59,408 nucleotides of DNA from Actinomycetes bacterium (GTDB taxonomy: Bacteria > Actinomycetota > Acidimicrobiia > Acidimicrobiales > CADCSY01): contig JANNNX010000078.1 of assembly GCA_031398745.1 (NCBI GenBank), positions 1 to 59,408 on the forward strand, written 5' to 3'. Position 1 is the first letter of the stretch. Each line of letters begins with the position of its first letter. The position numbers and the translations under genes are program-made. Positions 7,049 to 52,064 of this stretch are shown piece by piece. Under the pieces are notes generated by a model. It did not search any database. It was not told the DNA's origin and saw nothing but the letters and a program-made list of their open reading frames with translations.

Positions 7049-7135
7049 ATCGCCGAGCAGGGTACGGCCGATCGGGTGTCCGGTCGCGATCCGCCGAGCT
7101 CGGCTTGCGGTAGCCCGCCCGGGGCCGGCTCCGGG

Positions 7136-8443: not shown

Positions 8444-8459
8444 GAGGTCGGGGGCCGGT

Positions 8460-9737
<1,278 letters not shown>

Positions 9738-9770: not shown

Positions 9771-10445
9771 TCAGTCGCGGGCCAGGCCAGCTTGCGCTGC
9801 CTGGCGAACCGAGATGACCTCGTCGAGGATGCCGTAGGTCTTGGCCTCGTCGGCCGACATCACGAAGTCTCGATCGGTGTCGCGGTGGATCCGCTCGATC
9901 GGCTGGCCGGTGTGGTTGGACAGGATCTCCTCGAGCAACGTCCGCATCCGCTCGATCTCCTTGGCCACCAGCTCGATGTCGGCCGCCTGACCCATGGCCT
10001 GGGCGTAGGGCTGGTGGAGCAGGATCCGTGCGTGGGGCAGGGCCAGCCGCTTGCCCTTGGTGCCGGCGGCCAGGAGCACGGCGGCCGCCGAGGCGGCCTG
10101 GCCGAAGCAGATCGTCGAGATGTTCGGGCGAACGAAGGACATCGTGTCGTAGATGGCGAACAGGGCGGTGATGTCGCCGCCCGGGCTGTTCACGTAGATG
10201 TGGATGTCCTTGTCGGCGCTCTCGGACTCGAGGTGGAGGAGCTGGGCGCACACGAGGTTGGCGATCGTGTCGTCGATCGGGGTGCCCAGGAAGATGATGT
10301 TGTCCTTCAGCAGCCGGGAGTACAGGTCGAAGGCTCGCTCGCCCCGGTTGGTCTGCTCGATGACAGTGGGCACCAGGTAGTTGAACGCCCGGAGACGATC
10401 GGGCCCCCCGGCCATCCGCTCACGGTCACGCTCGTCCAACGTCAT
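9771..10445 (-). CDS. clpP: ATP-dependent Clp protease proteolytic subunit (paralog A)
   Basis: 224 aa with the ClpP fold (YVNSPGG, catalytic Ser/His context). It lies between tig and clpX. Confidence 0.9.
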
Positions 10446-11824: not shown

Positions 11825-11910
11825 AGGGGGCGCAGTGTACGGGTCGCGCTCCGGGCCCCGAACCTCCTCGCGACCCGGAGCGTCGAGGGCCCCGTCACCA
11901 CCGGCCCCGC

Positions 11911-12129
11911 TCAGTCCTCGAGGCGGAAGCCCACCTTCATCGTCACCTGGAAGTAGTCGGGGCGGCCGCCGGCGCCGAGATAGCCCCGCACCTGGGTCAC
12001 CTCGAACCAATCCAGGTGCCGCAACGTCTCGCCGGCGCGGGCCAGCCCGTTGCGGATGGCGGCGTCGGCGCCGTCGGGCGACGTGCCGACGATCTCGGTG
12101 ACCTTGTAGGTGGCGTCGTGGTCGGGCAT
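11911..12129 (-). CDS. Dodecin-family flavin-binding protein
   Basis: MPDHDATYKVTEIVGTSPDGADAAIRNGLARAGETLRHLDWFEVTQVRG...QVTMKVGFRLED is the typical dodecin signature. The start is at an internal Met. Confidence 0.8.
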   Translation of the reverse strand: MPDHDATYKVTEIVGTSPDGADAAIRNGLARAGETLRHLDWFEVTQVRGYLGAGGRPDYFQVTMKVGFRLED

Positions 12130-12278
12130 CGGACCCCCAGGCTCGTCGTGCCGACGCGGTGCCGGCAACAGCAATCGGACCGTGAGTTCCCCTCAACCGC
12201 CGTGGCGATACGCCCCTAGGGTCCAGCGGATGTTCGCCCCCGGCGCCGCCGCCCTGCCGTCGGCCACGGGGTGGCGTC

Positions 12279-13082
12279 GTGGCCGCTGACTTGGGCCTGG
12301 CCGAATCCGCCGCAGTGCTGGCTGCCGGCCTCGGCGCCGGCTTCATCAACACCATCGCGGGATCCGGGTCGTTGTTGACCTTCCCGACGCTGCTGGCGCT
12401 CGGCATCCCGGCCCGGACCGCCAACATGTCCAACACCGTCGGGTTGGTGCCCGGCTCTCTCAGTGGAGTGGTCGGCTATCGACGGGAGCTGGTCGGCCAG
12501 GGACGGCGGCTGGCCGTGCTGGCGCCGGCCGCGGCCGTCGGCGGCATCGTCGGCGGGCTCCTGCTGCTGGTGCTCCCGGCCAGCGCCTTCGAGGTCGTGG
12601 TTCCGTTCCTGGTGGCTCTGTCGGTCGCCCTGCTGGCGGCCCAGCCCCGCTTGCAGCGCTGGCTCCTCGAGCGCCGCGGGGCCGCCGGCCAAACCAGCGA
12701 CGGCACGGCTGCCGACCAGCACCACGGCGCGCTGCTGGTCGGGTCGATCGGACTGGTGGCGGTGTACGGCGGCTACTTCGGCGCCGCCCAAGGGGTGATC
12801 TTCGTTGCCGTCCTCGGAGTTTTCCTGGTCGATTCGCTCCAGCGGATCAACGCCACCAAGAACCTCCTGGCGCTCATCGCCAACCTGGTGGCTGCGCTCC
12901 TCTTCGTCACCCGCGGGGGGATCGCCTGGGAGGTCTCGGGGCTGATCGCCATCGGATCGATCGCCGGCGGCCAACTCGGTGCCCACTTCGGGCGCCGCAT
13001 CCCGGCCGACACCCTCCGTCTCCTGATCATGGCCGTCGGCACGGCGGCGGCCGCCCGGCTCCTCTGGGGCCTGGCCGACTGA
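12279..13082 (+). CDS. TauE/SafE (DUF81) family sulfite/anion exporter
   Basis: 267-aa polytopic membrane protein with the two-repeat TauE architecture. GTG start. Confidence 0.7.
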   Translation: MAADLGLAESAAVLAAGLGAGFINTIAGSGSLLTFPTLLALGIPARTANMSNTVGLVPGSLSGVVGYRRELVGQGRRLAVLAPAAAVGGIVGGLLLLVLPASAFEVVVPFLVALSVALLAAQPRLQRWLLERRGAAGQTSDGTAADQHHGALLVGSIGLVAVYGGYFGAAQGVIFVAVLGVFLVDSLQRINATKNLLALIANLVAALLFVTRGGIAWEVSGLIAIGSIAGGQLGAHFGRRIPADTLRLLIMAVGTAAAARLLWGLAD

Positions 13083-37943: not shown

Positions 37944-38636
37944 ATGCCGGGCCCCGTCGAGATCGTCCCCTCCGTGTTGCCGGCCGACTTCTCGCGCCTG
38001 GGCGACGAGGTGGTGGCCCTGGCCGACGCCGGGGTCGACCGCATCCAGTGGGATGTGATGGACGGCCGGTTCGTGCCCAACCTGACCTTCGGCCCCGACG
38101 TCGTCGCCTCGGTCCGCGACCTGGTCGCGGTGCCCTTCGAGGCCCACCTCATGATCGAGGAGCCCGACCTGCTGGCCCCCCGCTTCGTCGAGGCCGGTTG
38201 CCAGTGGCTCATCGTCCACGCCGAATCGACCCGTCACCTGCACCGCAGCCTCGACCTGGTCCGCTCGCTCGGCGCACGAGCGGCGGTGGCCCTGAACCCG
38301 GCGACGCCGGCGGTGGTGGTCGAGCCCGTGCTCGACCTGGTCGACATGGTGCTGGTGATGACCGTGAACCCGGGCTTCGGGGGCCAGGCCTACCTGGGCT
38401 CCATGGAGGCCAAGGTGCGCGAGGTGGCCACCCTGGTGGCGGCGTCGGGCCGCTCGATCGACATCGAGGTCGACGGCGGCATCGCCCCGGGCACGGTGGG
38501 CGGGGCCGCCGCCGCCGGGGCCAACGTGCTGGTGGCCGGCACCGCCCTCTACCGCGACCCCGAGGGGCTGGCCCACGCGGTCGCCGATCTCCGCCACCGG
38601 GCCGAGGGGGCGTCCGCCGCTCACGCCGAGGTCTGA
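37944..38636 (+). CDS. rpe: Ribulose-phosphate 3-epimerase
   Basis: PSVLPADFSRLGDEV...DVMDGRFVPNLTFG...HLMIE...VMTVNPGFGGQ are canonical Rpe motifs. Confidence 0.9.
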   Translation: MPGPVEIVPSVLPADFSRLGDEVVALADAGVDRIQWDVMDGRFVPNLTFGPDVVASVRDLVAVPFEAHLMIEEPDLLAPRFVEAGCQWLIVHAESTRHLHRSLDLVRSLGARAAVALNPATPAVVVEPVLDLVDMVLVMTVNPGFGGQAYLGSMEAKVREVATLVAASGRSIDIEVDGGIAPGTVGGAAAAGANVLVAGTALYRDPEGLAHAVADLRHRAEGASAAHAEV

Positions 38637-41600
38637 GCCGCCTCGGCCACCTCCACCAGCCGGCACAGGGCGTTGACCAGGGGCACCTGCCTGGCCGACG
38701 AGCACCGGGTGGCCAGCAGGGCCGGGCTGGCCACCACCACGGCCAGGGCCTGGGCCCGGGACACGGCCACGTTCAGGCGGTGGCGGTCGAGGAGGAACGA
38801 GGGGCCCCGGGGGGCGTCGGCCGCCGAGGAGGCGGCCAGCGAGCAGACCACGACCGGGGCCTCCTGGCCCTGGAAACGGTCGACGGTGCCCACCCGGGCC
38901 CCGGCCGGCAGGGCCTCGGTGAGCCGGTTGACCTGGGCGTTGTAGGGAGCCACGACCAGGACGTCGTCGAGGGTGAGGAATCGCTCCTGGCCGTGGCGGT
39001 CGACGAAGGTGGCACCCAGCAGGTCGGCCACCAGGTCGACCACCACCGCCACCTCCTCGTCGCTGCGGGTGCGGTTGCCGACGTGGTCGACCGGCACCCA
39101 GCGCACCCCCGTGCCGTTCAGCGTGCCCGACGCCTCCAGGTCGATACCGGCGCAGGCGTCGACCGAGCGCAGGCGGCCGTCGTAGGCCAGTTCGGACACG
39201 AACGAACACACGTCGGGGTGCATCCGGTAGGAGCGGTCGAGGAAGACGCCGAGGTCGGACCGCAACGTGGCCTGGTCGCCCAATAGGTGGCTGAGGGCCG
39301 AGGCGTCGCTGCCCAGCGGGTGGGTGCCCTTGCCCGGCTGGCGCAACTGCTGGGGGTCGCCCAAGAGGACGAGGTTGTGGGCCGCGGCCCCGGCGGCGAC
39401 GGCGTTGGCGAGCGGGAGCTGGCCGGCCTCGTCGATCACCAGGGTGTGGAGGGCACCGACCAGCGCCGGGCGGCTGAAGAGCCAGGTGGTCCCGGTGACG
39501 ATGTCGACCCTCGGGCCGGCGGCGGCCCCGGCATCCTCGGCCAACGCCGCCTCGACGACGTCGTTGGTGGCCAGCTCGACGAAGCGGTGCTCGACCTGGT
39601 CGGCCTCGTCGGCCTTCTGGAGGCAGCGCAGCGGTCGACCCCCGTCGTCGTCGGCCCGGTGGCACACCGCCTCCAGCAGGTTGGCGATGGCCTTGTGGCT
39701 GGGCCCGCTGATGCCCACGGTGTGGCCGGCCCGCACCAGGGCCACGATCAGCTCGGCGCCGGTATGGGTCTTGCCCGCCCCTGGCGGGCCCTGGACCGCC
39801 AGGCAGCCGTCGTCGAGGGCGAGGGCGAGGGCGACGGCCCTCGACGCCGGGTCGGCCTCGGGGTCGGTGGCCGGGTGCCCCCGGCCCGCGGCCGACGGCA
39901 CGAGCCGGGGCGGCCGGGCCAGGAGCAGGTCGCGCACCGCCCGGAACGGGCCGGGCTGGTCGATGCCGTGCTCCGCCACCCACTCCGCCACCCTCCCGAC
40001 CGACCGAGGCAGCTCGCCGGGGCTGATCGGAGGCCTGGGCACCACCGAGCGGGGGGCGTCGACCCGACCCTGGCGCTTCAGGTCGAGCACGCCCCCGACA
40101 CTGTCGATGGCGTGGACGGTCCCGATAGTCGCCTCGGTGGCTGGGTCGACCAACGTGTCGCCCACCCGCACCTTGTGCTCCTGGGCCGGGTCGAAGTGGT
40201 AGCGATGGATCTGCGACTGCTTCACCTGGCCGACCACGCCCTCGTATGCCAGCTCGCCGATGGCCTCGCTGTCGTCGACCAGCTGGGCGTCGGTGCGGGT
40301 CAGGCGGTCGAAGTGGGCCCACCACTCGGGCTTCTGCTCGCGGCGGTGGAAGCCGACCAGCTGGGCCAGCAGCCAGGTGGCGTGCTGGGCGGCGTCGTGG
40401 GTGGCGGGGTCGGCGGGCAGGCCGGTGCCGAGCCGGGCCGCCAACTCGGCCTCGAAGGCGTCGGCCTCGGTGACGGCCGCCGACGGGGTGCCGTCGACCG
40501 GTCCGGGCCGACCCAGCTCGGTGCCGGCCATGGCCGCCACCTCCACCCGCCGCGCCTCGAGCCAGTTCCGCAGGCCGAGCGTCGAACGGCAGTCGACGGC
40601 GTTGTAGGCCTCGATGTCGTCGAGGAGCTGCTGGTTGCCGGTTTCGAGCCACTCCTCGTAGACGACGATGCTCGACCCGCCGTCGCTCACCGTGCCGTCG
40701 CGGCCGTCGAGGTAGAAGGCCTCGAGCTTCTTGAGGCCGTAGCCCTCGAGCGAGGTCCGAAGGCCGTGGCGGACGACGGCGTAGAGGTCGACGAAGGTGC
40801 GACTGCGGAGCAGCACGTCGAGCTCGGCCTGGCGGGACGCGTAACGCCCGGCCAGGCGCTTGCACGCGGTGAGCTCGTAGGGGGCGTAGTGGTACACGTG
40901 GAGGTCGGGCCAGCGGCGACGCCGCTCGACCAGCAGGTCGATCACCGCCTCGAAGGCGGTCCGCTCGGCCACCGGGTCGTGGCCCCAGTAGGCGTGGTAG
41001 GTGGGTTCGCCGGTGTCGACGGTGACCAGGCCCCAGAGGTACTCCAGCCCGCCCTCGACGGCCCATGGGTCGCCCTCCAGGTCGAGGAAGACGTCGCCCG
41101 GCGAGGGCGCCGGCAGCCCGGCCAGGCCCAGACCCGGTCGGGGGGGAGGGAGGAGGGCGTAGCGGTCGGTTCCGTCGGCCGCGGCCCGGCGCTGGAGGCG
41201 GGCCTGGTGGCGGAGGCGGGCCAGGAAGGCGTCGCCGACCCGGGACACACGCTCGCCGTCGCCGGTCGTGGCGGCCAGGGCGGCGGCGGTGTCGATGCCG
41301 GCGGCGGCCAGATGGGCGGCGGTCGGGCCGCGCATGCCGGCCACCAGCGAGAGGTGGTCGTCGGCCCGGCGGCGCGCCTCGCAGGCCGGCGCCCACGGAC
41401 AGACCGCGCAGTGCGAGACGGGGTCGGGGTAGGTGTCGTCGGCCGGGGGCCGGTCGAGCACCGCCTCGAAGCGGTGGCGGACCGACCGGTGGTAGGCGGC
41501 GAGCTCGGCGGTGGGGTGGCGAGAGCGCTCGCCGTCGCCGGTGACCACCTCGACGTGGGTGGGGGCGACGCCCTGGATGCGCTCGACCTGCTCGGCGTAG

Positions 41601-42067
41601 GCGGTCAGCTGGAGCAGGGCCGCGGGCTTGGCCCGCCGGGCCAGCTTGGTGTCGGCCACGTCGTAGCGCCAGGGGCCGAGGGTGGAGGGCTCGTCGACCC
41701 GGAGCAGGAAGTCGGCATGGGCCCGCACCCGACCGTCGAAGAACGAGGCCTGGAAGATCACGTCCACCCCGGCGGCCATGGCCGCCACCGTCTCGGCCTC
41801 GGCGGCGGCCAGGGCGGTCGGCGAGGCGTCGAGGGGGCGAGCGATCTCCACCACCGAGTGGCCCTCGGCCCGGAGACGCTCGAGCTCGCGCCGCTCGTGC
41901 TCATCACCCCGGCGGCGCAGGACGGCCAGCTCGGGGTCGTCTTCGGGTGGGGGCTCGAGAAGACCCAGGGCCACCTGCCGATCGAGGGCGCTGCGGTGAC
42001 GGCACTCGACGAAGGCCACCAGGTCGCTGGGCGAGGTGATCAGGCGGTCGTCGGCAGTCCGGTACAT
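38621..42067 (-). CDS. Fusion of a TM0106-family RecB-like (PD-(D/E)xK) nuclease and an SF1B Upf1/DNA2-like helicase
   Basis: N-terminus has FQASFFDG...DFLL...YDVADTKLARRAKPAALLQLTAYAEQ and a C-terminal Cys cluster (CAVCPWAPAC). The C-terminal helicase carries Walker A GPPGAGKTHT, VIDEAGQ and FQGQEAPVVV motifs. 1148 aa. Confidence 0.8.
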   Translation of the reverse strand: MYRTADDRLITSPSDLVAFVECRHRSALDRQVALGLLEPPPEDDPELAVLRRRGDEHERRELERLRAEGHSVVEIARPLDASPTALAAAEAETVAAMAAGVDVIFQASFFDGRVRAHADFLLRVDEPSTLGPWRYDVADTKLARRAKPAALLQLTAYAEQVERIQGVAPTHVEVVTGDGERSRHPTAELAAYHRSVRHRFEAVLDRPPADDTYPDPVSHCAVCPWAPACEARRRADDHLSLVAGMRGPTAAHLAAAGIDTAAALAATTGDGERVSRVGDAFLARLRHQARLQRRAAADGTDRYALLPPPRPGLGLAGLPAPSPGDVFLDLEGDPWAVEGGLEYLWGLVTVDTGEPTYHAYWGHDPVAERTAFEAVIDLLVERRRRWPDLHVYHYAPYELTACKRLAGRYASRQAELDVLLRSRTFVDLYAVVRHGLRTSLEGYGLKKLEAFYLDGRDGTVSDGGSSIVVYEEWLETGNQQLLDDIEAYNAVDCRSTLGLRNWLEARRVEVAAMAGTELGRPGPVDGTPSAAVTEADAFEAELAARLGTGLPADPATHDAAQHATWLLAQLVGFHRREQKPEWWAHFDRLTRTDAQLVDDSEAIGELAYEGVVGQVKQSQIHRYHFDPAQEHKVRVGDTLVDPATEATIGTVHAIDSVGGVLDLKRQGRVDAPRSVVPRPPISPGELPRSVGRVAEWVAEHGIDQPGPFRAVRDLLLARPPRLVPSAAGRGHPATDPEADPASRAVALALALDDGCLAVQGPPGAGKTHTGAELIVALVRAGHTVGISGPSHKAIANLLEAVCHRADDDGGRPLRCLQKADEADQVEHRFVELATNDVVEAALAEDAGAAAGPRVDIVTGTTWLFSRPALVGALHTLVIDEAGQLPLANAVAAGAAAHNLVLLGDPQQLRQPGKGTHPLGSDASALSHLLGDQATLRSDLGVFLDRSYRMHPDVCSFVSELAYDGRLRSVDACAGIDLEASGTLNGTGVRWVPVDHVGNRTRSDEEVAVVVDLVADLLGATFVDRHGQERFLTLDDVLVVAPYNAQVNRLTEALPAGARVGTVDRFQGQEAPVVVCSLAASSAADAPRGPSFLLDRHRLNVAVSRAQALAVVVASPALLATRCSSARQVPLVNALCRLVEVAEAAQTSA

Positions 42068-42167
42068 GGCCTGCCCAGCATGACAGCGCCCTCTGACATC
42101 GACCCGTGGAACCGCTTAGGCCCGGGCCTGCCGACGTGTGGCCTACTCACCACGGCCAGGGCGACAT

Positions 42168-42205
42168 GGGGACCCGACGTCCTGCATGGGGTGACGTGGC
42201 GTCCC
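42168..42205. other. Imperfect 13-bp inverted repeat (GGGACCCGACGTC ... GACGTGGCGTCCC)
   Basis: Seen directly in the intergenic region between the imm-like gene 2 and the nuclease-helicase start. It could be a hairpin or terminator, or an operator. Confidence 0.3.
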
Positions 42206-42239
42206 CACATCGGGTGGGTCGGGACCTGAGTCACCCTCG

Positions 42240-42660
42240 GGCATCACTCGTCACTCCGTTCGCACCGCCGTCGCTGGGAACGGACCGACCGTGGCCAGTC
42301 GATGGTCCCGGTGTCGGACGAAGCCGCCGTCGCGGGTGACGTCGAACTCGACCACCTCGACGGCAGCCGACTCGCCAACTGCCCGGAGGGCACCGAGATC
42401 GATCCCGAAGCGACGACCATCCTGAGCGTCGTCACGTCGGAACACGGCGAGGTTCCTCTCGGTCGGAAAGCCATCCCCCAAGACGAGCCCCGTCTCGGTC
42501 CACAGCCCTTCGCTCTCCACCCCCTCGAACCAGCCGTCACTGCGCACTGCGGCCAGGGCCACCTGGATCAGACCCGCCGTCGGCTGCCCCCACCCCGCCG
42601 GCATCACATCCTCCGGGCGATTCGCCACCCGCACGACATCGCACTTGATCGCAGCCACCC
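42240..42660. repeat. Direct repeat copy A (about 420 bp, about 95% identical to 45703..46123)
   Basis: Near-identical DNA covers the 3' halves of both imm-like genes plus about 10 nt downstream (cactcgtcactccgttcgcaccgccgtcgctgggaacggaccgac...). The 5' halves are much more diverged. Confidence 0.75.
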
Positions 42661-42919
42661 AGGCCACATATCCATCGGCCTTGGTCACGATCGCCCCCGT
42701 CTGATCGACCACTAGCTCAGTAAGCCCGCTCAGCGTGGGGGTGCCGACGCTTCGCAAAACACCAAGGTTCAAAGAGAACGCTCGGTGGGCCTCCGCCAAC
42801 CCGAATACTGGCGCCACATCGTCTTTCCCAAACGAGATGTAACCCAGTTCGGGACGCTCCGTGAGGAACATCATCGAAGGCGAGGCATCGAACCACCCAT
42901 CGCCCACGTCTTGGATCAT
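42251..42919 (-). CDS. Putative immunity-like protein, paralog 2 (family unrecognised)
   Basis: About 85% aa identity to the gene at 45712..46395, and the C-terminal about 100 aa are nearly identical. The start is placed at MIQDVGDGWFD. The 290-aa track ORF over-extends. Confidence 0.55.
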   Translation of the reverse strand: MIQDVGDGWFDASPSMMFLTERPELGYISFGKDDVAPVFGLAEAHRAFSLNLGVLRSVGTPTLSGLTELVVDQTGAIVTKADGYVAWVAAIKCDVVRVANRPEDVMPAGWGQPTAGLIQVALAAVRSDGWFEGVESEGLWTETGLVLGDGFPTERNLAVFRRDDAQDGRRFGIDLGALRAVGESAAVEVVEFDVTRDGGFVRHRDHRLATVGPFPATAVRTE

Positions 42920-43227
42920 GATTTCCAACACTAGAACCTCACAGTCGAGGGCTGACAGCGCGAGAAGAGCAAGCTGTAGCGGCTGGCGCCGGCGAGCACC
43001 TGATGGATTCGCCGACGTTGCTTCACTTGACAAGAAGCACGACGAACCAGACGAGCATCCCGGCCATGCCCATCCCCACGAGCCATTGCGCCGTGCGGCT
43101 CGGGTGCCGCTGCGGGCCGCCACCTGCGAGCCAAAGGGCCAAGCCCACGGTGGTCAACGCGAGTGGGAAGGTTGGGGACGCCGCTCCCATCCTGTCGATC
43201 CATTCGACACTCGGCTTCCTCGGTGCG

Positions 43228-44394
43228 TCAGTTCGGCGGGTCGCTCTCTTCGGGGAACACCCGGGCCAGGCTGGGGACCATGCGCCGGACCGTCTGGCAC
43301 CACTTCTTCGTCCGCCTCGCAAGGAGGAGATCGCCGAGCGCCTCCCGGGCCCGGGTCCGGGCCCGGGCATTGAGCAGCGCCCCCAAAGAGATCTCGTAGG
43401 ACGACACGTCGGGCCACCACTCCTGCACCTCGCCCACCGTCAGCTCGGCTCCACCCGACGCCAGTGGCACTGCACCCTCCGGCCACCGGCCGCCGAGTAC
43501 CTCGAAGTGCCCCGGTCCGAGGCGCTGCCAGAAGAAGCCATCCAAGGCCTGGAACCACATCATCGGCCCGTGCTGGTGATAAGGCGATCGTCCGTCCGGG
43601 TTCATCGGTTTGTTGTGCCAGGCGGAGCACTTCGGCTGGGTGGCCACCACCGCATACGCCACCTCCCCGAGCTCCCGGCCGAGCTCGACCAACCGCTCGA
43701 CGTGCTCGACGAAGTTGGTCTCCGTCAGCCCGGGCCCGGCCACCATCGCCGTGAAACATGCCCATTCCGGCTCGGCGTTCACCGCCACGCCTCGCAACAG
43801 CTCATCCAGCTCGCCAGCGACAAAGTCAGCCGACGACCCCGCCGCCACCACCGACGAGGCCCGACGTCCCGCGGTGGCGAGATCAACCTGGCCGGCGTAC
43901 ACCTCAGCCAATCTGCAACGCACCAAGCCCTCGGCCTGCGACTCCAGCCACTCCACCCCCGCCGCCAACCAACCATCGACGATCGATGCCCGATCGGGCG
44001 AATCCGGATGCGGATACACGGCCAACACCACCGTCGGTCCCGTGATGAACAGCAACGAGAAGAACTCGGTGGTCGGTGGCACCGACACCACCGCATCGCT
44101 CACCCCCACCTCGACCAGATAGCCGACCAACACCTCGGCCATCTCCGCCCGCTGACCCCCCGACAGGTCCTCCGCCCCGAACAGGCCGACCACCCCCATC
44201 GGCAGCACCGTCGGACCCACCAACCTGTCGAACAACGGTTCGGTGAACCCGCCCTCGACATGGACGAAGTGGTGGAACAACCGATCGAAGGCCACCGCCA
44301 CCTGCTCGAGGGTCGCCGCCCCGCTCACGCACAGCACGACGTCCTCCTGCGCCCGAAGTGCGCTCGTCGTCCCCCGACCCACCACCACCGGCAT
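43228..44394 (-). CDS. Uncharacterised 388-aa protein (paralog of 44454..45629)
   Basis: Shares blocks with its neighbour (LGEVAYAVVATQP / GGRWPEGA / EWWPD). No signal peptide or recognisable domain. Confidence 0.5.
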   Translation of the reverse strand: MPVVVGRGTTSALRAQEDVVLCVSGAATLEQVAVAFDRLFHHFVHVEGGFTEPLFDRLVGPTVLPMGVVGLFGAEDLSGGQRAEMAEVLVGYLVEVGVSDAVVSVPPTTEFFSLLFITGPTVVLAVYPHPDSPDRASIVDGWLAAGVEWLESQAEGLVRCRLAEVYAGQVDLATAGRRASSVVAAGSSADFVAGELDELLRGVAVNAEPEWACFTAMVAGPGLTETNFVEHVERLVELGRELGEVAYAVVATQPKCSAWHNKPMNPDGRSPYHQHGPMMWFQALDGFFWQRLGPGHFEVLGGRWPEGAVPLASGGAELTVGEVQEWWPDVSSYEISLGALLNARARTRAREALGDLLLARRTKKWCQTVRRMVPSLARVFPEESDPPN

Positions 44395-44453
44395 CTCGCT
44401 ACACCCGGCCCGTCATGGCCGAGACAGCGCGGTCGCGACAGCCACGGACCCGG

Positions 44454-45629
44454 TCACGACGGGTCATCGAGACCCAAGATGCGCTGGCGGCGCTCGAATC
44501 GCCGCCGTGAGATATCCGAGCGCCGATCGGTGTAGGGATAGGCCAGCAACCGTGCCAGCAGCGCACGAGCCCGGGCCCGCACCGCGGCGTTGGACGTCGC
44601 CTGGCCGGATTGGTAGGTCGCCATGTTCCCGGTCATCCACTCCGCCATCTGGGCCGGCGAGTACCCCTGAAGCCAGATCTGGTCCGGCCACCACTCCTCG
44701 GGCTCACCCACCCGCACCTCGGCCCGACCCGGACCGACCACCTCAGCACCCTCGGGCCACACGCCGCCCAACTCCTCGAGGTGTCTCGCCGACAGCAACT
44801 GCCACCAATGGGCATCTGGCACCACCTGGTTGCACATTCCCATCGTGCTGTTGGTTGCCTTCGCAGCCAGCTCGTCGGCATCACCGGGCTCCAAGTAGAT
44901 GGCGGCGTGCCAGTCGGGCTCGGTCACGACCACTGCGTAGGAGACCTCCCCCAAGGAGCGTGCCAGGTCGACCAACGACTCCGCGTGCGCCACCGCCGTC
45001 GTGGGGGTGAGCGACATGCCTCCCAGAGCGACACTCAACACCGGCTCATGTGATGATCCCACGCCGACAACACCGACCTGCTCAGGCATGCGGCCGGCGA
45101 CCACCTGAGCGCTCATGCCCTGCGCGTGCGTGCCCTCCAACACCATCCGTACGTCAGCCAGCGGCAAGGTCGACTCCACCCCCGACCCGATCGTGATCTC
45201 GGCATCGCCCCCGACGAAGGGCTGCGCCTCCAGGAAGTCGCAGGCCGCCTCGAGCCAACCCGGCGGCACACGACCGACGTCGGTCAACCACAACCCAACG
45301 GGCACGGCCGGCGCGACCAACAACGCCACCGACATACCCCACTGCCGATACCGATACGGGTCCCGCTCCGCCGGACACACCACCACCGCATCGGACGCTC
45401 CCTGCTCGTCCAACAACGCCACCAGCCGGTCCGGCAACTCCCCCCACGCTCGACGACCTAGCGAATGCGCATCGATGATCACGAACGGGCCCTCCGGGGA
45501 TCGAACCGGCCCGATCACCAGGTTCACCGACTCCTCCAGATCGGCCTCCAGATCCGCCAGCAGCTCTCCGGCCAACACCGATAAGGCCCGAACGGCGGCC
45601 TCGACATCGACCGCGCCCTGCACCACCAA
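44454..45629 (-). CDS. Uncharacterised 391-aa protein (paralog of 43228..44394)
   Basis: About 35-40% identity to its neighbour (LGEVSYAVVVTEP / GGVWPEGA / EWWPD). Confidence 0.5.
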   Translation of the reverse strand: MVVQGAVDVEAAVRALSVLAGELLADLEADLEESVNLVIGPVRSPEGPFVIIDAHSLGRRAWGELPDRLVALLDEQGASDAVVVCPAERDPYRYRQWGMSVALLVAPAVPVGLWLTDVGRVPPGWLEAACDFLEAQPFVGGDAEITIGSGVESTLPLADVRMVLEGTHAQGMSAQVVAGRMPEQVGVVGVGSSHEPVLSVALGGMSLTPTTAVAHAESLVDLARSLGEVSYAVVVTEPDWHAAIYLEPGDADELAAKATNSTMGMCNQVVPDAHWWQLLSARHLEELGGVWPEGAEVVGPGRAEVRVGEPEEWWPDQIWLQGYSPAQMAEWMTGNMATYQSGQATSNAAVRARARALLARLLAYPYTDRRSDISRRRFERRQRILGLDDPS

Positions 45630-45702
45630 AGTGAACCCACCCGCGTCCCGACGGATCCTCGAGCGAACCCCCGCGCTAGGCGAGCCATGCGTTATCCCCG
45701 AT

Positions 45703-46123
45703 CAACACTCGTCACTCCGTTCGCACCGCCGTCGCTGGGAACGGACCGACAGTGGCCAGTCGATGGTCCCGGTGTCGGACGAAGCCGCCGTCGCGGGTGA
45801 CGTCGAACTCGACCACTTCCACGGCAGCCGACTCGCCCACCGCCCGGAGGGCACCGAGATCGATCCCGAAGCGACGACCGTCCTGAGCACCATCTCGCCG
45901 GAACACGGCGAGGTCCCGCTTGGTCGGAAAGCCATCCCCCAAGACGAGCCCCGTCTCGGTCCACAGCCCTTCGCCTTCCACCCCCTCGAACCAGCCGTCA
46001 CTGCGCACTGCAGCCAGGGCCACCTGGATCAGACCCGCCGTCGGCTGCCCCCACCCCGCCGGCATCGCATCCTCCGGACGATTCGCCACCCGCACGACTT
46101 CGCACTTGATCGCAGCCACCCAG
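45703..46123. repeat. Direct repeat copy B (partner of 42240..42660)
   Basis: See copy A. Confidence 0.75.
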
Positions 46124-46395
46124 GACGCGGACCCATCAGCCCCGGTGACGATCGCTCCCGCCTGATCTACCACCAGGTCGGTCACGCCGCTCAGCGTGGG
46201 GGTGCCGACGCTTCGCAACGAGCCAAGCCTCAACGAATAGGCCGCGCGCCCACCCTCCAACGCGAATACGGGGCGACCGGGACTGCCCTCTCCAAACGAG
46301 ACGTAACCCAGTTCAGGGCGCTCCGTGAGGAACATCATTGATGGCGAGGCGTCGAACCACCCATCGCCCACGTCGCGCAGAATTACCTCAAGCAT
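45712..46395 (-). CDS. Putative cognate immunity protein of the RHS toxin (paralog 1)
   Basis: 227-aa ORF starting 10 nt after the RHS stop on the same strand. It is duplicated at 42251..42919. Confidence 0.55.
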   Translation of the reverse strand: MLEVILRDVGDGWFDASPSMMFLTERPELGYVSFGEGSPGRPVFALEGGRAAYSLRLGSLRSVGTPTLSGVTDLVVDQAGAIVTGADGSASWVAAIKCEVVRVANRPEDAMPAGWGQPTAGLIQVALAAVRSDGWFEGVEGEGLWTETGLVLGDGFPTKRDLAVFRRDGAQDGRRFGIDLGALRAVGESAAVEVVEFDVTRDGGFVRHRDHRLATVGPFPATAVRTE

Positions 46396-46405
46396 ATCTC
46401 GTTCC

Positions 46406-49400
46406 TTATATTGGCGGATTCATCCGCTGTGTAGAGCACGCAGTTACACTCGAGTTCTTGCAGCCACTAGGGATAAAGATTTCAGGAAGCCCACCGCTGG
46501 TATCTTTGAATCCTGGGTAGATCTTGGTCTCAAGAGGGACCGCTGGCAGAACTTTGCCAATCGTTCGAACGTCGACGAGCAGACCGGTCGTAAGGCGATC
46601 ACCTGCGTTTTTCGGAGGATCAGGCAGCCCGGCGTAGAATCGAAAGGAACGATATCCAAACTGTCTGTCCCATGCGATCGGGTCAACGAAGGTCCAAGAC
46701 CTACCGTCACGCTGTGCCTCTCCACCGTGTGCTCGATAGATAACGAGCCCATAGTTGCCATCGCTGTCCTCGCCTGCCACACACCATGAACGGTATCGAC
46801 GGCACTCCGTCTGCAGCGCCTCCAGCTTGTCTTGGTCCTCTCGGCGATTGTCCTCTTCGGCACGGCAAGCGAAGACGCAAAGTTTAGGTAGATCGGGCAG
46901 GTCGGGCAGATCGGGCAGTCGGCCAGGAAGGTCAGGGAGATTTGGCAGGTTCGGTAGGTCAACCCCGATGGTCGCTGCCAGATACGCCAGTGCCGCCACC
47001 CCCACGGCGACAACGACAACGGCGCCGATGACCGCGCCGACTACCGCACCGCCCGCTGCGACCGCCCCACCAAGGGCAGCTGCCGCAGGGGGGACACCGA
47101 CGAATGCAGGGCTGAACACTCCGTCGCTCATCGAGTACATGCCGGTGGGGTCTGCGCGGTCGATCGGGTCGTTATCGGCGTAGTGGTAGCGGTAGGCCAC
47201 CGTGGGTGTGCCCGACACCCCACCGAGAGGGTCGGTGGTGGTGAACGCGGCCGTGGTCGGCTGGTAGTCACGGGCCCGCAGGTGGATCAGGTCGTCGACC
47301 ACCACCTCCCCCCGGTAGCCCAACTGCGGGGCGTAGGTCGAGGTCCCCGAGGCCTTGCCCCACATGTCATAGGACGTGGCCCGGGCCACCGACGCCGTGG
47401 CTGAGGTCGACAGGACCGACCCGTACACGTCGGTCGCCAGCGCCGAGGTGGTCGAGCCCTTACGCATGGCTACCCACCCCATGGTTCCCCCGACTAGATC
47501 GGTGATGGCCGACCCCGTGGTCATGCCGGTGAGCTGGGCCACACCGCCGGCGGTGTCCCAATCCAAGGTCGTCGAGGTCACCGAGGCCCCGGTGCTGGCC
47601 ACGCCCACCAGGTTGCCAGCCGGATCGTAGCTGCGGGTCTCGGTGGTCGAGCCCGACGACGACACCTCCGTCAGCGACGACAACCGGCCGGCCTCGTCAT
47701 ACACGTAGCTGGTGGCGTTCGACCCGGCCGACTCCGACACCCGTCGACCGGCCTCGTCATAGGCGTAGCTCGTCGTCACCGATCCCGCGGTCGAGGACGT
47801 GAGCTGCCCGGCCGCGTCATAGGCCCAGGTGGCGGTCACCGAGTTGCCCTTCTTCTCCTGCACCCGCCGCCCGAGCGCGTCGTAGCTCCAGCGCTGGGCG
47901 CTGCCCGACGACGGCTGGCGCACGGTGATCTGGCCCGCCAGGTCGTGGGTGTAGGTGGTGGTGGCCCCGGCGGTGGTCTCGGTGGCCACCCGCCCCGCGC
48001 TGTCGTAGCCCAGGGTGGTGGAGCGGTTGGCGCCGGCCAGCACCTGGTCGAAGCCGGTCACCCGCCCGCCGGTGTACGTCCACGTCCGGCTGCCGCCGAC
48101 CACCGCCTCACCGGTGACCCGACCGTCGGCGTCATAGGTGTATGTCGCCAACGCCGCCGTCGGCGAGGTCAGGTTGCTGAACGACACGTCGTCCACGGCG
48201 ACCTGGTGCGCCCCGCCGCTGACCCGTACGTAGGAGACCTTGGTGGCGCCAGGGTCGACCACCGCGGTGTCGGTCACCTCCGTCGACCACGCCACCGGCT
48301 CTCCGGCGGCTACGTCCCACGACTTGACTCGCACCGTGGTGCCCTCGACCCGAAAGCGCAGGCCCCGCTCACTCAGGCCCGTGGCGACGGTGAAGGTGCC
48401 GATCTGGGTGGTCGTCGTGCCGACCTTCCGATAGAGCGAGCCGGTGCTGGAGCTGTTGGCCACCTCGACCCAGTAAGAACCAGTCGACGATGACCGGCCG
48501 TACACCCGGAACTTTGCCGACGACGATGCGTCCTCGAACCGGTAGGTCAGTGCCACCTCCGAATCGGTGGTGGTCGTGCCCTTGGCGCTGATCGTCGCCG
48601 TGCTCGACCCAGTTGACCCGGTGGACAAGATGGCCTCGTTGTCCTCGATCGTCACCGAGGCCCCGGTGCCAGCGCTCACACCCCACTTGTTCGTGTCGGG
48701 GGCGGAGCCGTCGCTGCCGGTGAAGGCGTCGGCCATGGTCTCGGCCGCCGTGATGGTCGAGAGCCGCCCGGCAGCGTCGTACTGGTAGCGCTCGATCGAG
48801 CCGTCGGGGCTGCGCATCGAGGTCCGGCGACCGGCGACGTCGTAGGTGTAGCTGGTGGTCCGTCCCCCGGGGGTCACCTGCTGCGTCTGGGCCCCGCCAG
48901 CGTCGTAGGCGTAGGTGGTCGTGCCCGAGGCATCGGTGATGCTCGTCACCCAACCGGCGGCGTCGTGGGTGTAGTCGACCTGGCTGCCGTCGTCGTAGGT
49001 GCGCGTCGTCAGCTGGCCGGCGGCGTCGAAGGTGTCGGTGGTCGACCGACCCGACGGGTCGACGGTGGTGCTGAGGCGACCGGCGTCGTCGAAGCCCGTC
49101 GTAGTAACCCGTCCCAGCGGGTCGGTGGTCTCGGTCTGCTGGCCGGCCGCGTCATAGCCGTAGCTGGTCACGCCGCCCAGGGCGTCGACCATCGAGGTGC
49201 GCCGACTGCGGCTGTCGTAGCCGTAGGTCGTCAGCTTGCCCAGCGCGTCGGTGGCGGCGGTCTGGCGACCATCGGCGTCGAAGGTGTACGTCGTCGTCCC
49301 CGCGCCGGTCTTGGTCACCGATACGAGCTGGCCCTTGGCGTCGTAGCCGTTGGTGGTGACCACCCCGGCGGAGTCGGTCATCGTGGCCACCCGCCCGGCG

Positions 49401-49798
49401 GAGTCGTAGGTGCTGGCGGTGACCAGGCCCGACGGTGACGTCACCGACAGCTGGTTGCCGTCAGCGTCGTGGACATAGGTCGTCGTGCCCGAAGCCGTGG
49501 TCACCGCCACCAACCGGCCGGCGGTGTCGTAGGCATTGGTCGAGGTGTTCCCGGCCGCATCGGTGGTCGTCGCCACCCGTCCGGCCGGGGTGTAGGTGGT
49601 GGTGGCCACGCCACCGCGGGCGTCGGTCTCGCCGACCACCCGGCCGAGGGCGTCGTAGCTGGTCGACACGACGTGGCCGGCTGGGTCCGTGACCGACGAC
49701 TGGCGTCCGGCGGCGTCATAGGCCGTGGTCGTCGTGCGACCGAGCCCATCGGTGGTGGTGACCTCGCGTCCGGCGGCGTCGTAGCCGGTGGTCGTCAC
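46406..49798 (-). CDS. RHS/YD-repeat polymorphic toxin, C-terminal portion: YD-repeat shell, RHS core end motif and a variable C-terminal toxin domain
   Basis: Dozens of YDxxGR repeats. RHS boundary motif YRYHYADNDPIDRADPTGMYS. Then a Gly/Ala/Val-rich hydrophobic segment, an (LPD/LPN)n linker and a final domain of about 170 aa with lower-GC DNA. It is contiguous with 49716..52064 through a 1-nt frame change. Confidence 0.85.
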   Translation of the reverse strand: MTTTGYDAAGREVTTTDGLGRTTTTAYDAAGRQSSVTDPAGHVVSTSYDALGRVVGETDARGGVATTTYTPAGRVATTTDAAGNTSTNAYDTAGRLVAVTTASGTTTYVHDADGNQLSVTSPSGLVTASTYDSAGRVATMTDSAGVVTTNGYDAKGQLVSVTKTGAGTTTYTFDADGRQTAATDALGKLTTYGYDSRSRRTSMVDALGGVTSYGYDAAGQQTETTDPLGRVTTTGFDDAGRLSTTVDPSGRSTTDTFDAAGQLTTRTYDDGSQVDYTHDAAGWVTSITDASGTTTYAYDAGGAQTQQVTPGGRTTSYTYDVAGRRTSMRSPDGSIERYQYDAAGRLSTITAAETMADAFTGSDGSAPDTNKWGVSAGTGASVTIEDNEAILSTGSTGSSTATISAKGTTTTDSEVALTYRFEDASSSAKFRVYGRSSSTGSYWVEVANSSSTGSLYRKVGTTTTQIGTFTVATGLSERGLRFRVEGTTVRVKSWDVAAGEPVAWSTEVTDTAVVDPGATKVSYVRVSGGAHQVAVDDVSFSNLTSPTAALATYTYDADGRVTGEAVVGGSRTWTYTGGRVTGFDQVLAGANRSTTLGYDSAGRVATETTAGATTTYTHDLAGQITVRQPSSGSAQRWSYDALGRRVQEKKGNSVTATWAYDAAGQLTSSTAGSVTTSYAYDEAGRRVSESAGSNATSYVYDEAGRLSSLTEVSSSGSTTETRSYDPAGNLVGVASTGASVTSTTLDWDTAGGVAQLTGMTTGSAITDLVGGTMGWVAMRKGSTTSALATDVYGSVLSTSATASVARATSYDMWGKASGTSTYAPQLGYRGEVVVDDLIHLRARDYQPTTAAFTTTDPLGGVSGTPTVAYRYHYADNDPIDRADPTGMYSMSDGVFSPAFVGVPPAAAALGGAVAAGGAVVGAVIGAVVVVAVGVAALAYLAATIGVDLPNLPNLPDLPGRLPDLPDLPDLPKLCVFACRAEEDNRREDQDKLEALQTECRRYRSWCVAGEDSDGNYGLVIYRAHGGEAQRDGRSWTFVDPIAWDRQFGYRSFRFYAGLPDPPKNAGDRLTTGLLVDVRTIGKVLPAVPLETKIYPGFKDTSGGLPEIFIPSGCKNSSVTACSTQRMNPPI
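46886..46960. repeat. Imperfect 6/12-nt tandem repeat encoding a DLPNLPNLPDLPGRLPDLPDLPDLPKL linker
   Basis: gatcgggcaggtcgggcagatcgggcagtcggccaggaaggtcagggagatttggcaggttcgg, coding on the minus strand. Confidence 0.7.
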
Positions 49799-52064
49799 CT
49801 CGCCCCAGCGGGTTGGTCACCGACGTCTGGTTGCCGTCGGCGTCGTATGCGTAGGTCGTCTCTCGACCCAGCTCGTCGGTCGAGCGCAGCAAGCGCCCGA
49901 GGACGCCCCAGGTGTTGGTGGTCGTCGTCCCGTCAGGGTTGGTGGTGGTCACCAGCTGACCCCGGGAGTCGTACTCATAGCTGGTCACATGGCCCAAAGG
50001 GGTACTGGTGGAGGCGGTACGGCCGTGGGCGTCGTAGATGTTGGTGGTCACGCCACCCGAGGGGTCGGTCGTGGTCACGAGACGACCGACGGCGTCGTAG
50101 GCGTAGGCGGTGGTCTGGCCCGCGGGGTCAGTCGTGGTCAGCACCCGACCACCCCCGTCGAAGGTCCAGGTGGTGACACGACCGGCTGCCGTCGTCTGCT
50201 GAGTCCGGTTACCGGCGGCGTCGTATTGGTAGGTGGTGGTCCCGGCCGCAGTCGTCGAGCTGGTCATCCGTCGGGATGCGTCGTAGGAGTAGGTCGTGGT
50301 CACGCCGTCGGCATCGGTCGACGAGGTCACCAGCCCGTCGGAGCTGACGTAGCTGGTCGTCTGCCCGACGTGGTCGGTGACCGACGTCGGTACCCGGCTC
50401 GATCCGTCGTACGTGTAGGTCGTCGTCCCCGACGCCGGCGACGACGTCGAGGTGACCCGATCGAGGGCGTCGTAGGTGGCGGTCGAGGTGATGCCAGCCT
50501 CGTCGGTGGCGGTGACCACGTTGCCGTGCGCGTCGTAGGTCTGGGCCACGGCCTGGTCGAGCCGACCCACGGCGGCCACGACGTTGCCCGACGCGTCATA
50601 GGTCCGACTGAGGACACCGCCAACGGGGTCGGTGGCCTGCGTGACCCGAGCATTGACGTCGTGCTGGTAGGTGACGACCTCGCTCGATGCCGACTCGGTC
50701 ACCGTGGTGGTGCCGGTGTCGTCGTCGTACTCGAACGTCGTGGTCGAGGTCCCCGGACCGGCGTGCTGGGCAAGGACCCGCCCCCGGGAGTCGTAGGTGT
50801 TGACGGCGACGACCCTGCCCGTGGCGTCGGTGATCGACGCAATACGTCCTGCGGCATCGAGAGAATATGCGGTGGCTCCGGCGCTGGGCGTGGTCACCGA
50901 CACGAGGCGGTCCGACGAGTCATACGCATAGGTGGCGTTTCGACCGTCCGACGATTCGACATTGGCCAACCTCGCAGAGGCGGTGTAGGTGAACGCCAGA
51001 GATCCACCGGATGAAGAACTGACCTCGGTCACCAGACCGTCGACATCTCTTGCGATGGTGATCGATTCGCCCTCGGCATCACTCTGGGCAACCAGCAAGC
51101 CCTGGTCGTCGTAGGTCCACACCTCGCCGGAATACCAGGTGAGCGTCCAGGTAAGCGTCCAGCTGCTGTCACGGTGCTGGGCCAGCTCGCCGTACTGGTC
51201 ACCCGGGCGAACGAAGACGGTGCCGTCCGTCTCGTAGGTCACCTCTCGGCCATCGGGGAGTACCAGCGCGGCGGAGCCGCCGGTCTGCAACGCCACCGTC
51301 GAGTCGTAGGCGCCCCGCCAGCCGACCCCCATCGCCCCCGAGGTGAGATCGCGCGAGTTGTAGGTGGTCGTCCAGGCCAGGCCGAAGGCATCGGATGCCC
51401 CCGCCAGATCGGTGCTCGACAGCACGAAGTTCCCGGACGCGGTGTCCACCGGGTCCGACGCCGTCATCTGACCCGATCGATAGCCCAGCGTCGAGCGCAC
51501 CGGCACCGTGGTGGCGCAGGTTTCCGTCGGGAGACCCGCGAACGCTCCGGTCGGCGAGGCCACCTCGAGTCGCACGGTGTCGCACGCGTAGTTGTCGGAG
51601 TCGAAGAGTCCGATTCTCGGAGCGTCGTCCCGCAACCCCGACGACAGCTGCGTCGCGTACCGGGACAGACCGGAGAAGCGGACCTCCCGCTCCACGCCCT
51701 CGATGACGACGTGACCGGGAGTGGTGAGCACGTCGATCAGCAAGGACTCGTCGGCGGATCCATATCCCGAGCTGCTCACAAGGAACCCGTCGAGACAGGA
51801 GGCGTCCACGTCGATGCGGAACGCACTGGCTGTACTCGCGTCGGCGAGCACCGCCGTGCACGACGTGGTGCCCGTCGGCGTCACCGAGGCCTCGTAGGAG
51901 AAGTACTGATCGACCTCCCCCGTGGTCAGGTTCAGGCTCACGATGGGATCAGCAGCTGCCGGCACCGTCGCTAGGGGCTGGATCACGGCCAAGGCGGACG
52001 ACAGCGCGGACAGAGAAACCCCGACCCCAACCCCCATGCGATGCATGGATCCGACCATAGACAC
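49716..52064 (-). CDS. RHS/YD-repeat polymorphic toxin, N-terminal portion: Sec signal peptide, N-terminal domain and the start of the YD-repeat shell
   Basis: Signal peptide MHRMGVGVGVSLSALSSALAVIQPLATVPAAA. RHS shell-opening motif DPVDTASGNFVLSSTDLAG. YD repeats (TYDASGNVV, TYDAHGNVV, YAYDADGNQ). After ...SVTNPLGR the frame decays to junk, while the +1 frame continues as TTTGYDAAGR. Confidence 0.85.
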   Translation of the reverse strand: MSMVGSMHRMGVGVGVSLSALSSALAVIQPLATVPAAADPIVSLNLTTGEVDQYFSYEASVTPTGTTSCTAVLADASTASAFRIDVDASCLDGFLVSSSGYGSADESLLIDVLTTPGHVVIEGVEREVRFSGLSRYATQLSSGLRDDAPRIGLFDSDNYACDTVRLEVASPTGAFAGLPTETCATTVPVRSTLGYRSGQMTASDPVDTASGNFVLSSTDLAGASDAFGLAWTTTYNSRDLTSGAMGVGWRGAYDSTVALQTGGSAALVLPDGREVTYETDGTVFVRPGDQYGELAQHRDSSWTLTWTLTWYSGEVWTYDDQGLLVAQSDAEGESITIARDVDGLVTEVSSSSGGSLAFTYTASARLANVESSDGRNATYAYDSSDRLVSVTTPSAGATAYSLDAAGRIASITDATGRVVAVNTYDSRGRVLAQHAGPGTSTTTFEYDDDTGTTTVTESASSEVVTYQHDVNARVTQATDPVGGVLSRTYDASGNVVAAVGRLDQAVAQTYDAHGNVVTATDEAGITSTATYDALDRVTSTSSPASGTTTYTYDGSSRVPTSVTDHVGQTTSYVSSDGLVTSSTDADGVTTTYSYDASRRMTSSTTAAGTTTYQYDAAGNRTQQTTAAGRVTTWTFDGGGRVLTTTDPAGQTTAYAYDAVGRLVTTTDPSGGVTTNIYDAHGRTASTSTPLGHVTSYEYDSRGQLVTTTNPDGTTTTNTWGVLGRLLRSTDELGRETTYAYDADGNQTSVTNPLGRGDDHRLRRRRTRGHHHRWARSHDDHGL

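Follow-up and report, generated by a model that had tools for sequence, protein, structure and literature searches.

The 59,408-nucleotide contig JANNNX010000078.1 of an Actinomycetes bacterium from the order Acidimicrobiales (GenBank assembly GCA_031398745.1), called the window in its full length below, carries on its minus strand a large RHS gene followed by an array of smaller genes, in the order RHS, Y1, X1, X2, a 55-aa open reading frame (ORF) with two predicted transmembrane (TM) helices, and Y2 (Table 1). We interpret this region, with a probability of about 60%, as the 3′ end of an RHS polymorphic-toxin locus that a high-GC actinobacterium acquired by horizontal transfer, followed by an array composed solely of immunity genes. 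Y1 and Y2 would be two alleles of the gene that protects against the toxin of this RHS protein, and X1 and X2 would belong to a second immunity family, directed against a different toxin domain that we call T. The locus is of an ordinary type, an RHS toxin gene with its immunity gene and accompanying orphan immunity genes; what is new are its unnamed component families (the toxin domain of the RHS protein, T, X and Y). An earlier note, made from the sequence of this DNA, had likened the array to orphan immunity genes and considered X as a possible second immunity family, a suggestion now supported by the linkage of X to T in six loci; its other proposal, that X proteins are non-secreted effectors or antitoxins, is not favoured. 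The order Y1-X1-X2-Y2, the common strand and the coordinates given in that note hold for all four genes, the small ORF between X2 and Y2 having been missed.

The X family was revealed by an exhaustive HMMER search of 1.84 billion representative proteins with a concatenated Y1+X1+X2 query. It comprises about 105 representative clusters, with a typical length of 360–420 aa, and wherever the source organism is named it is a member of the Actinomycetota (Acidimicrobiales, Thermoleophilaceae, Solirubrobacteraceae or Streptomyces). Word-indexed searches with Y1, X1 or an alignment of 56 X sequences returned only the query itself, one ortholog and one fragment, and missed even X2; the prefilter of these searches was swamped by high-GC, low-complexity candidates. 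Scans of genomes and metagenomes for X yielded 7 and 9 loci, respectively, most of them short, and about 20 independent X loci could be compared. As the earlier note had supposed for both X and Y, the family matches nothing known: searches of Pfam, NCBIfam and PADLOC with X1 and X2 came up empty, the X profile retrieved nothing from the PDB, and no consistent Pfam family was found among the 56 aligned members, only scattered single matches with E ≥ 0.03.

The clearest genomic context for X is found in Streptomyces sp. BHT-5-2 (NZ_CP081497.1; locus L025, 3144–8822). In this locus, an X gene (E=3.9e-53 against an X hidden Markov model (HMM) built without it) lies 45 nt after the gene of a 1558-aa RHS protein with a DUF6531 domain and 26 RHS repeats, and the gene beyond X is an unrelated SRAP gene on the opposite strand. 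The C-terminal domain of this RHS protein is T; on NZ_CP081497.1, T spans 903668–904180 and X 904226–905182. The same domain adjoins X in five further divergent loci. The check proposed in the earlier note, whether X or Y homologues elsewhere are encoded next to RHS, LXG or other polymorphic toxins, thus has a positive outcome for X. T precedes X with a gap of 77 nt in L002 and follows X in L012, L013 and L017; in L014, the adjoining T was detected with E=6.5e-23 by a T HMM built from the other five sequences. The T gene called in L013 overlaps the stop codon of X, and the open frame of T in L014 overlaps the end of X. The carriers of T are either RHS proteins, which have it at their C-terminus, or ~300-aa proteins whose N-termini look like signal peptides (those of L012, L013 and L014 are hydrophobic and signal-peptide-like by eye), with an X-family gene adjacent every time. 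The linkage between X and T is old and independent, given that the X proteins of the six T loci come from different 50% clusters and that identity among their T domains is 26–50%.

The T domains share the motif WEV..WRVDI..EV[KR]RW..VWAD..GN[IV]Y[FY]A, in which WEV, RxD and EV[KR]RW are invariant. These motifs resemble a PD-(D/E)xK nuclease by eye only, with R instead of K in two members, and T has no sequence match in Pfam, NCBIfam or the PDB. Queries of PLSDB with the Streptomyces X and T proteins retrieved the same record only. The location of T at the C-terminus of an RHS protein suggests that it is a delivered, putative toxin, and by the logic of such systems immunity to it would be encoded by the adjoining gene. 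The best reading of X, based on this genomic linkage, is accordingly that of an immunity family for T. The T HMM found no match in the window or in L001, the locus of an X1 ortholog (E>0.5), and we accordingly class X1 and X2 as orphan immunity genes.

The alignment of 56 X sequences shows an N-terminal consensus M..(I/V).(V/A)RG...RIR..P.G..LQV, a highly conserved block DE.V.DAFPYQ.LGPGHL.RLGG.P.GA.PL..GRVEL..GEP..WLP and, among single positions, an invariant His besides near-invariant Asp, Gln, Glu and Arg. Tandem and fused X copies occur in L003 (973 aa, 9995–12916), L004 (669 aa, 1682–3691) and L018 (100–2207), where single polypeptides combine two or three X domains and the later copies lack the first ~100–120 residues. 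Many X copies lie among insertion sequence (IS) elements and toxin–antitoxin modules. Tandem or fused copies, such surroundings and orphan occurrence are typical of polymorphic-toxin immunity families.

The two X proteins of the window share 32% identity over 324 aa by BLASTP (E=1e-32) and 33–34% in MAFFT/global alignments, slightly below the 35–40% first estimated; their lengths of 391 and 388 aa and their description as older paralogs stand, and the blocks LGEV[AS]YAVV, GG[VR]WPEGA and EWWPD are present in both. In a neighbour-joining tree of the family, X2 and X1 with its 75%-identical ortholog P0004 (in L001) are mutual nearest relatives. Judging from their sequences, X1 and X2 are the products of an old local duplication and form deep sister branches. 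The ratio of nonsynonymous to synonymous divergence (dN/dS) between X1 and P0004 is 0.22. Both X1 and X2 are soluble by hydropathy. For X2, we retained the start at 44394 rather than the shorter NCBI call, because this ATG fits the N-terminal consensus of the family; the same start is called on an independently assembled Logan contig. In X1, the conserved N-terminus (VRSRIRRDAGGFTL) is in the X1 frame and is cut off from the ATG at 45692 by a 1-nt deletion relative to the ortholog in L001. This deletion lies after codon 7 (45629–45692) and leaves the TTG at 45629 as the earliest start that can be used. Just downstream of X, L001 also contains a 60-nt remnant of an RHS core, 93% identical to the RHS gene of the window, and an IS fragment.

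Y1 occupies the position expected of an immunity gene, on the same strand as the toxin gene and directly 3′ of it: its ATG lies 10 nt past the RHS stop codon and is preceded by a Shine–Dalgarno-like sequence (GGAACGAG). On account of this tight coupling to the toxin stop codon, and by position only, Y1 is presumed to be the cognate immunity gene. On this positional basis, we consider immunity the most likely role of Y. Neither Y protein has a match in Pfam, NCBIfam, PADLOC or the PDB, and both are devoid of hydrophobic segments in hydropathy plots and thus soluble. The size of 227 aa previously given for Y1 stands; Y2 measures either 226 aa from a GTG codon, in which case its N-terminus matches that of Y1 (MLEIMIQ versus MLEVILR), or, as had been proposed, 222 aa from the ATG at 42919.

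The two Y proteins are 86% identical in a protein alignment, in agreement with the ~85% of the earlier note. Comparison of the array with itself by blastn showed the elevated identity of the Y copies also at the DNA level (45703–46374 versus 42242–42910; 88.7% over 675 nt), and this was the sole DNA repeat; tblastx self-comparison was too noisy in such high-GC DNA to be informative. The identity is unevenly distributed. The 3′ 420 nt of the repeat (45703–46122), which include 9 nt past the stop codon, are identical at 399 of 420 positions (95.0%), as the earlier note had estimated, and similarity drops off abruptly beyond. A sliding window reveals a mosaic, with ~89% identity in the first 90 nt, 53–68% at 46290–46200, ~80% to 46110, and 93–98% afterwards, interrupted by a dip to 85–88% at 45930–45841. 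The trough at 46290–46200 corresponds to protein residues ~33–60, which form a hypervariable patch.

This mosaic is also apparent at synonymous sites. Synonymous divergence (dS, Nei–Gojobori method) is 0.61 for codons 1–100 and 0.15 for codons 101–227, with 31 of 75 synonymous sites differing in the 5′ part and 14 of 102 in the 3′ part (Fisher p=4e-5). The 3′ part of the two genes is thus the younger one, which supports the recent duplication or gene conversion suggested earlier. Constraint at the protein level hardly explains why synonymous divergence is four-fold lower over the last 127 codons, a pattern that is the hallmark of partial conversion or of recombination. The dN/dS values between Y1 and Y2 (0.28, with a range of 0.12–0.38 along the gene and the lowest value, 0.12, in the 3′ part) indicate that both copies are constrained, selected coding genes. 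A short inverted repeat, TCCGTTC ... GAACGGA, with a 7-bp stem and a loop of ~17 nt, is located in the last codons of both Y copies (42260–42300 and 45720–45760); it has no T-tract and is therefore not a classical terminator.

Only the Y reading frame is duplicated, beginning with the start codon and including 9 nt beyond the stop, and the flanks of the two copies are unrelated. The region 42000–46400 contains no remnants of an RHS core (tblastn with RHS residues 700–1130 gave nothing below E=2) and none of a toxin domain; classical displacement of rhs-CT/rhsI cassettes is therefore not how the array arose. We infer instead that a block of X1, X2 and the small ORF was there first, that Y came to lie on both sides of it by being copied or acquired twice, and that later conversion homogenised the 3′ 420 nt and spared residues 33–60.

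The RHS gene upstream of the array spans 46406–52064 and encodes a hydrophobic N-terminus that is signal-peptide-like by eye, a DUF6531 domain and dozens of YD/RHS repeats ahead of an Rhs-associated core. It is not a single intact frame: one extra G at ~49800 (CGAGGTGACG) splits it into ORFs of 782 and 1130 aa, both with matches to TIGR01643, the frame passing from ...TNPLGR to VTTTGYDAAGR..., so that the signal-peptide-like part and the toxin-bearing part are out of frame. This frameshift (49790–49810) reflects either a pseudogene or a sequencing error in a homopolymer. The core (Rhs_assc_core, TIGR03696) is located at residues 810–887 of the second ORF and is followed by ...DPIDRADPTGM and then by 243 aa without RHS similarity (~46406–47137), i.e., by the DPxG-type motif and variable C-terminal domain of an Rhs toxin. 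The variable region is composed of a hydrophobic Gly/Ala-rich stretch (hydropathy maximum at ~aa 918–928), a linker of (D/N)LP repeats and, at about residues 975–1130 of the second ORF, a toxin domain of ~155 aa that matches nothing in Pfam, NCBIfam or the PDB. Relatives of this domain were sought in PLSDB, in which tblastn detected one, which ends the protein of an orphan RHS cassette carried by a plasmid of Aliiroseovarius crassostreae (L024; NZ_CP080783.1, 5326–6662). The two domains are 31% identical over 116 aa (pairwise E=5e-8) and share the motifs YR.(H/Y)GG...G.SW..VDP...GLP...GGLPE.(I/F)IP, and the Aliiroseovarius cassette also encodes a similar hydrophobic Gly/Ala-rich stretch upstream of the toxin domain. 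The Aliiroseovarius cassette lies in an orphan array of the textbook kind, in which small genes follow each fragment of the rhs core; this array also contains a cassette for a HYD1 ADP-ribosyltransferase.

Table 1. Features of the RHS locus and its array in the window.
Feature	Position	Strand	Evidence or remark
RHS gene, N-terminal part	49716..52064	-	Pfam DUF6531 2.3e-16, RHS_repeat 4.2e-79; frameshift at its end
RHS gene, C-terminal part	46406..49798	-	RHS_repeat 2.2e-91, TIGR03696 3.7e-12; toxin domain terminal
Y1, 227 aa, soluble, presumed cognate immunity gene	45712..46395	-	Ribosome-binding site; 10 nt past RHS stop
X1, 391 aa, orphan immunity candidate	44454..45629	-	X-family HMM E=2.5e-98 over 44484–45674
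X2, 388 aa, orphan immunity candidate	43228..44394	-	X-family HMM E=1.6e-81
55-aa ORF between X2 and Y2 with two hydrophobic helices	43023..43190	-	Also called as a gene on the Logan contig
Y2, 226 aa, 5′ third diverged, 3′ part homogenised	42251..42931	-	Second Y copy
Direct DNA repeat copy 1 (Y1 codon 8 to 9 nt beyond the stop)	45703..46374	.	blastn versus 42242–42910
Direct DNA repeat copy 2 (Y2)	42242..42910	.	Partner of 45703–46374

The locus looks acquired, since the GC content at third codon positions (GC3) of the genes from RHS to Y2 (0.73–0.86) is below that of the flanking genes (0.90–0.95). Its assembly is supported by a Logan contig from SRR20217204, which is 100% identical to 42728–45399 and reproduces the junctions between X1, X2, the small ORF and Y2; this contig ends within the Y repeat at 42728, as expected for a genuine repeat. 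The maximum 19-residue hydropathy of the product of the small ORF is 2.29. A scan for promoters and terminators gave nothing exceeding background.

These data are compatible with the following scenario. The RHS protein, with its signal-peptide-like N-terminus, its YD-repeat shell and a presumably cleavable C-terminal toxin, would deliver the ~155-aa domain, which lies outside the named families, and Y1, probably translationally coupled to the toxin gene, would be a cytoplasmic protein that binds and neutralises this toxin in the producer. Y2 would be a second allele of the immunity gene, its 3′ two-thirds homogenised with Y1 by gene conversion and its N-terminal third, which includes the hypervariable residues 33–60, remaining different; it could plausibly cover a variant toxin of related strains. 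X1 and X2 would derive from a separate, unnamed actinobacterial immunity family whose putative cognate toxin is T, nuclease-like by eye, and may protect the cell against T-type toxins delivered by competitors.

A number of observations weigh against an immunity role for X, for Y or for both. The AlphaFold2 models of X1 and Y1, based on shallow alignments, were unusable (pLDDT, the predicted local distance difference test, of 45 and 29, respectively) and give no support at the level of the fold. X proteins are large for immunity proteins (~390 aa), and an invariant His with near-invariant Asp, Glu and Arg is seen more typically in enzymes or ligand-binding proteins than in pure binders. No toxin is visible near most X genes, and some of these genes have conserved housekeeping neighbours: a long form of X (849–1024 aa) lies beside mazG/mfd in two metagenome-assembled genomes of Acidimicrobiales (L005 and L011), and X lies beside leuC in L007. 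Moreover, some X proteins have C-terminal extensions of ~470 aa, and on one metagenomic contig X forms the N-terminal domain of a fusion protein with a STAND NTPase (NB-ARC/AAA_16 plus HTH_77; P0023, L010 1081–3420). Such non-toxin contexts are what orphan immunity genes look like, yet they leave room for other roles. X might be linked to T as an accessory protein (a chaperone, maturation factor or regulator) or as an enzyme repairing the damage caused by T, with X1 and X2 as leftover cargo in the window; the conserved polar residues, the large size, the NTPase fusion, the long extensions and the stable housekeeping contexts in some Acidimicrobiales would all suit such a role. We nevertheless consider it unlikely, because X in Streptomyces occupies the canonical immunity position directly 3′ of the RHS gene, because X genes overlap or abut T genes in both orders, and because tandem and fused arrays and occurrence without T are found as in orphan immunity genes. 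A bolder variant, which we regard as very doubtful, would make the X domain a toxin-recognition module reused beyond immunity, with the fused polypeptides of L003, L004 and L018 as multi-specific poly-immunity proteins, the L010 protein as an NLR-like STAND/NB-ARC fusion using the immunity domain as bait for an incoming toxin, and X1 and X2 acting as a hetero-oligomer.

For Y, the exhaustive phmmer search of the same representative proteins and the word-indexed search retrieved no homologue besides its twin, and no co-occurrence of Y1 with homologues of the toxin domain, which were sought in PLSDB only, was found elsewhere. In addition, the 118-aa gene behind the Aliiroseovarius cassette is unrelated to Y; since homologous toxins often have non-homologous immunity proteins, this gene neither supports nor refutes the proposed role. 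The true protector could in principle be X1, X2 or the small membrane ORF, with Y1 and Y2 as unrelated lineage-specific flanking genes, and besides the isolation of Y and the unrelated gene downstream of the homologous toxin, the immunity position held by X in Streptomyces and the hydrophobic segment in the C-terminal region of the RHS protein, which makes a membrane-located protector conceivable, speak for this alternative. It seems decidedly unlikely given that the gene coupled to the toxin by a 10-nt gap, with a ribosome-binding site, is Y1, and that the partner toxin of X differs from the toxin of the window and is absent here. The history proposed for the Y pair has its own competitors. 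Stronger constraint on the 3′ part after a single old duplication would account for the minimum of dN/dS in this part and could also involve the short inverted repeat at the 3′ end of both copies, but it does not predict that dS itself is four-fold lower there, nor that the identity extends 9 nt beyond the stop codon, and we hold it to be improbable. Finally, both the RHS gene and X1 contain a 1-nt frameshift, which may indicate a decaying locus or assembly errors in homopolymers. The two indels lie in G-rich runs within 6 kb, and the window is a single NCBI contig whose proteins were seen on one contig each, so that the Y duplication or the frameshifts might be artefacts of a metagenome-assembled contig. 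We judge this extremely unlikely, as the Logan assembly reproduces 42728–45399 exactly, including the junction of X2, the small ORF and Y2, and breaks inside the repeat, and as Y1 and Y2 have different flanks and are distinct at 11% of their positions.

Orphan immunity genes are well established in published work, both for Rhs loci and for loci of type VI secretion systems (T6SS) (PMC10539506, PMC3150448, PMC12247911). The Rhs/YD-repeat loci of Serratia, Salmonella and Dickeya, with RhsI and orphan immunity genes, resemble the locus of the window in their YD shell, Rhs core, variable C-terminal toxin and tightly coupled downstream gene (PMC10539506, PMC3967940, PMC3150448). The presence of further immunity-type genes without a cognate toxin at the same locus is another common trait. 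The locus described here differs in being actinobacterial, in having a signal-peptide-like N-terminus instead of a T6SS PAAR/VgrG context, and in a toxin domain, Y and X that fall outside any named family; in contrast to classical orphan rhs-CT/rhsI cassettes, such as those of the Aliiroseovarius array, its array contains no remnants of the rhs core or of C-terminal domains. Toxin-free arrays of orphan immunity genes with rapid divergence, tandem paralogs and an association with mobile DNA are also described for the poly-immunity or acquired interbacterial defence (AID) clusters of Bacteroidales and other T6SS hosts, which are carried by mobile elements of Gram-negative bacteria and encode known Imm families (PMC12247911, PMC10470768). 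Unlike these clusters, the array of the window contains only two families, X and Y, is attached to a resident RHS gene and has no adjacent recombinase. The immunity families of Pfam (Imm1–Imm74, SUKH/SMI1-KNR4), as reportedly laid out by Zhang et al. in 2012, are known for tandem arrays and multi-domain fusions. X is similar to such families in its tandem copies, its fusions of two or three domains, its orphans and its location beside a toxin domain that is carried by different scaffolds, and differs from them in its lack of any Pfam or NCBIfam match, its much larger size (~390 aa) and its conserved polar residues.

Polymorphic-toxin biology is barely charted in Actinomycetota beyond Streptomyces. 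T and X form a candidate toxin/immunity pair outside Pfam and NCBIfam, in which T is found on at least two delivery scaffolds, and the toxin domain of the window is a second one, common to an actinobacterial RHS protein and an alphaproteobacterial orphan cassette and paired here with the immunity candidate Y, for which 15 billion proteins contain no detectable relative. The partial conversion between two putative immunity alleles, which spares a hypervariable patch, may be a natural pointer to the surface that determines specificity. Confirmation of these pairs would add families to the catalogues of toxins and immunity proteins and would leave the underlying concepts unchanged.

A few additional features were observed around X genes and in the neighbourhood of the array. 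A hydrophobic small ORF (2–4 TM helices) lies directly 3′ of X in four loci, i.e., in the window (43023–43190, minus strand), L001 (11503–11979), L004 (~3714–4211) and L027 (1196–1459, where it overlaps the stop codon of X); no mutual homology was detectable among these four ORFs. In L009, an RCC1-repeat protein (140–2965) with an unannotated C-terminal extension of ~170 aa ends 6 nt before the X gene, and the gene of a beta-helix protein stops 10 nt short of X in L013. These two proteins may represent further delivery scaffolds, and no toxin domain was identifiable in either of them. Two further candidate domains, a PIN-like C-terminal domain on the RCC1-repeat protein of L009 and a CPCC-type immunity domain in L004, were not confirmed by Pfam. 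A few kb from the X gene of L015, the ORF translations at 7094–8901 repeat the peptide FTTATAVVLVE several times, suggesting a CRISPR-like array of direct repeats. Directly downstream of the array, the window encodes a 1148-aa nuclease-helicase unrelated to the locus (38621–42067, minus strand), with a TM0106-type RecB-like nuclease domain, an RNase_H_2 domain and an AAA_11/AAA_12 superfamily 1 helicase; its top PADLOC match is MkoA of the Mokosh system (E=8e-42), and its GC3 of 0.95 suggests that it is a resident gene outside the island.

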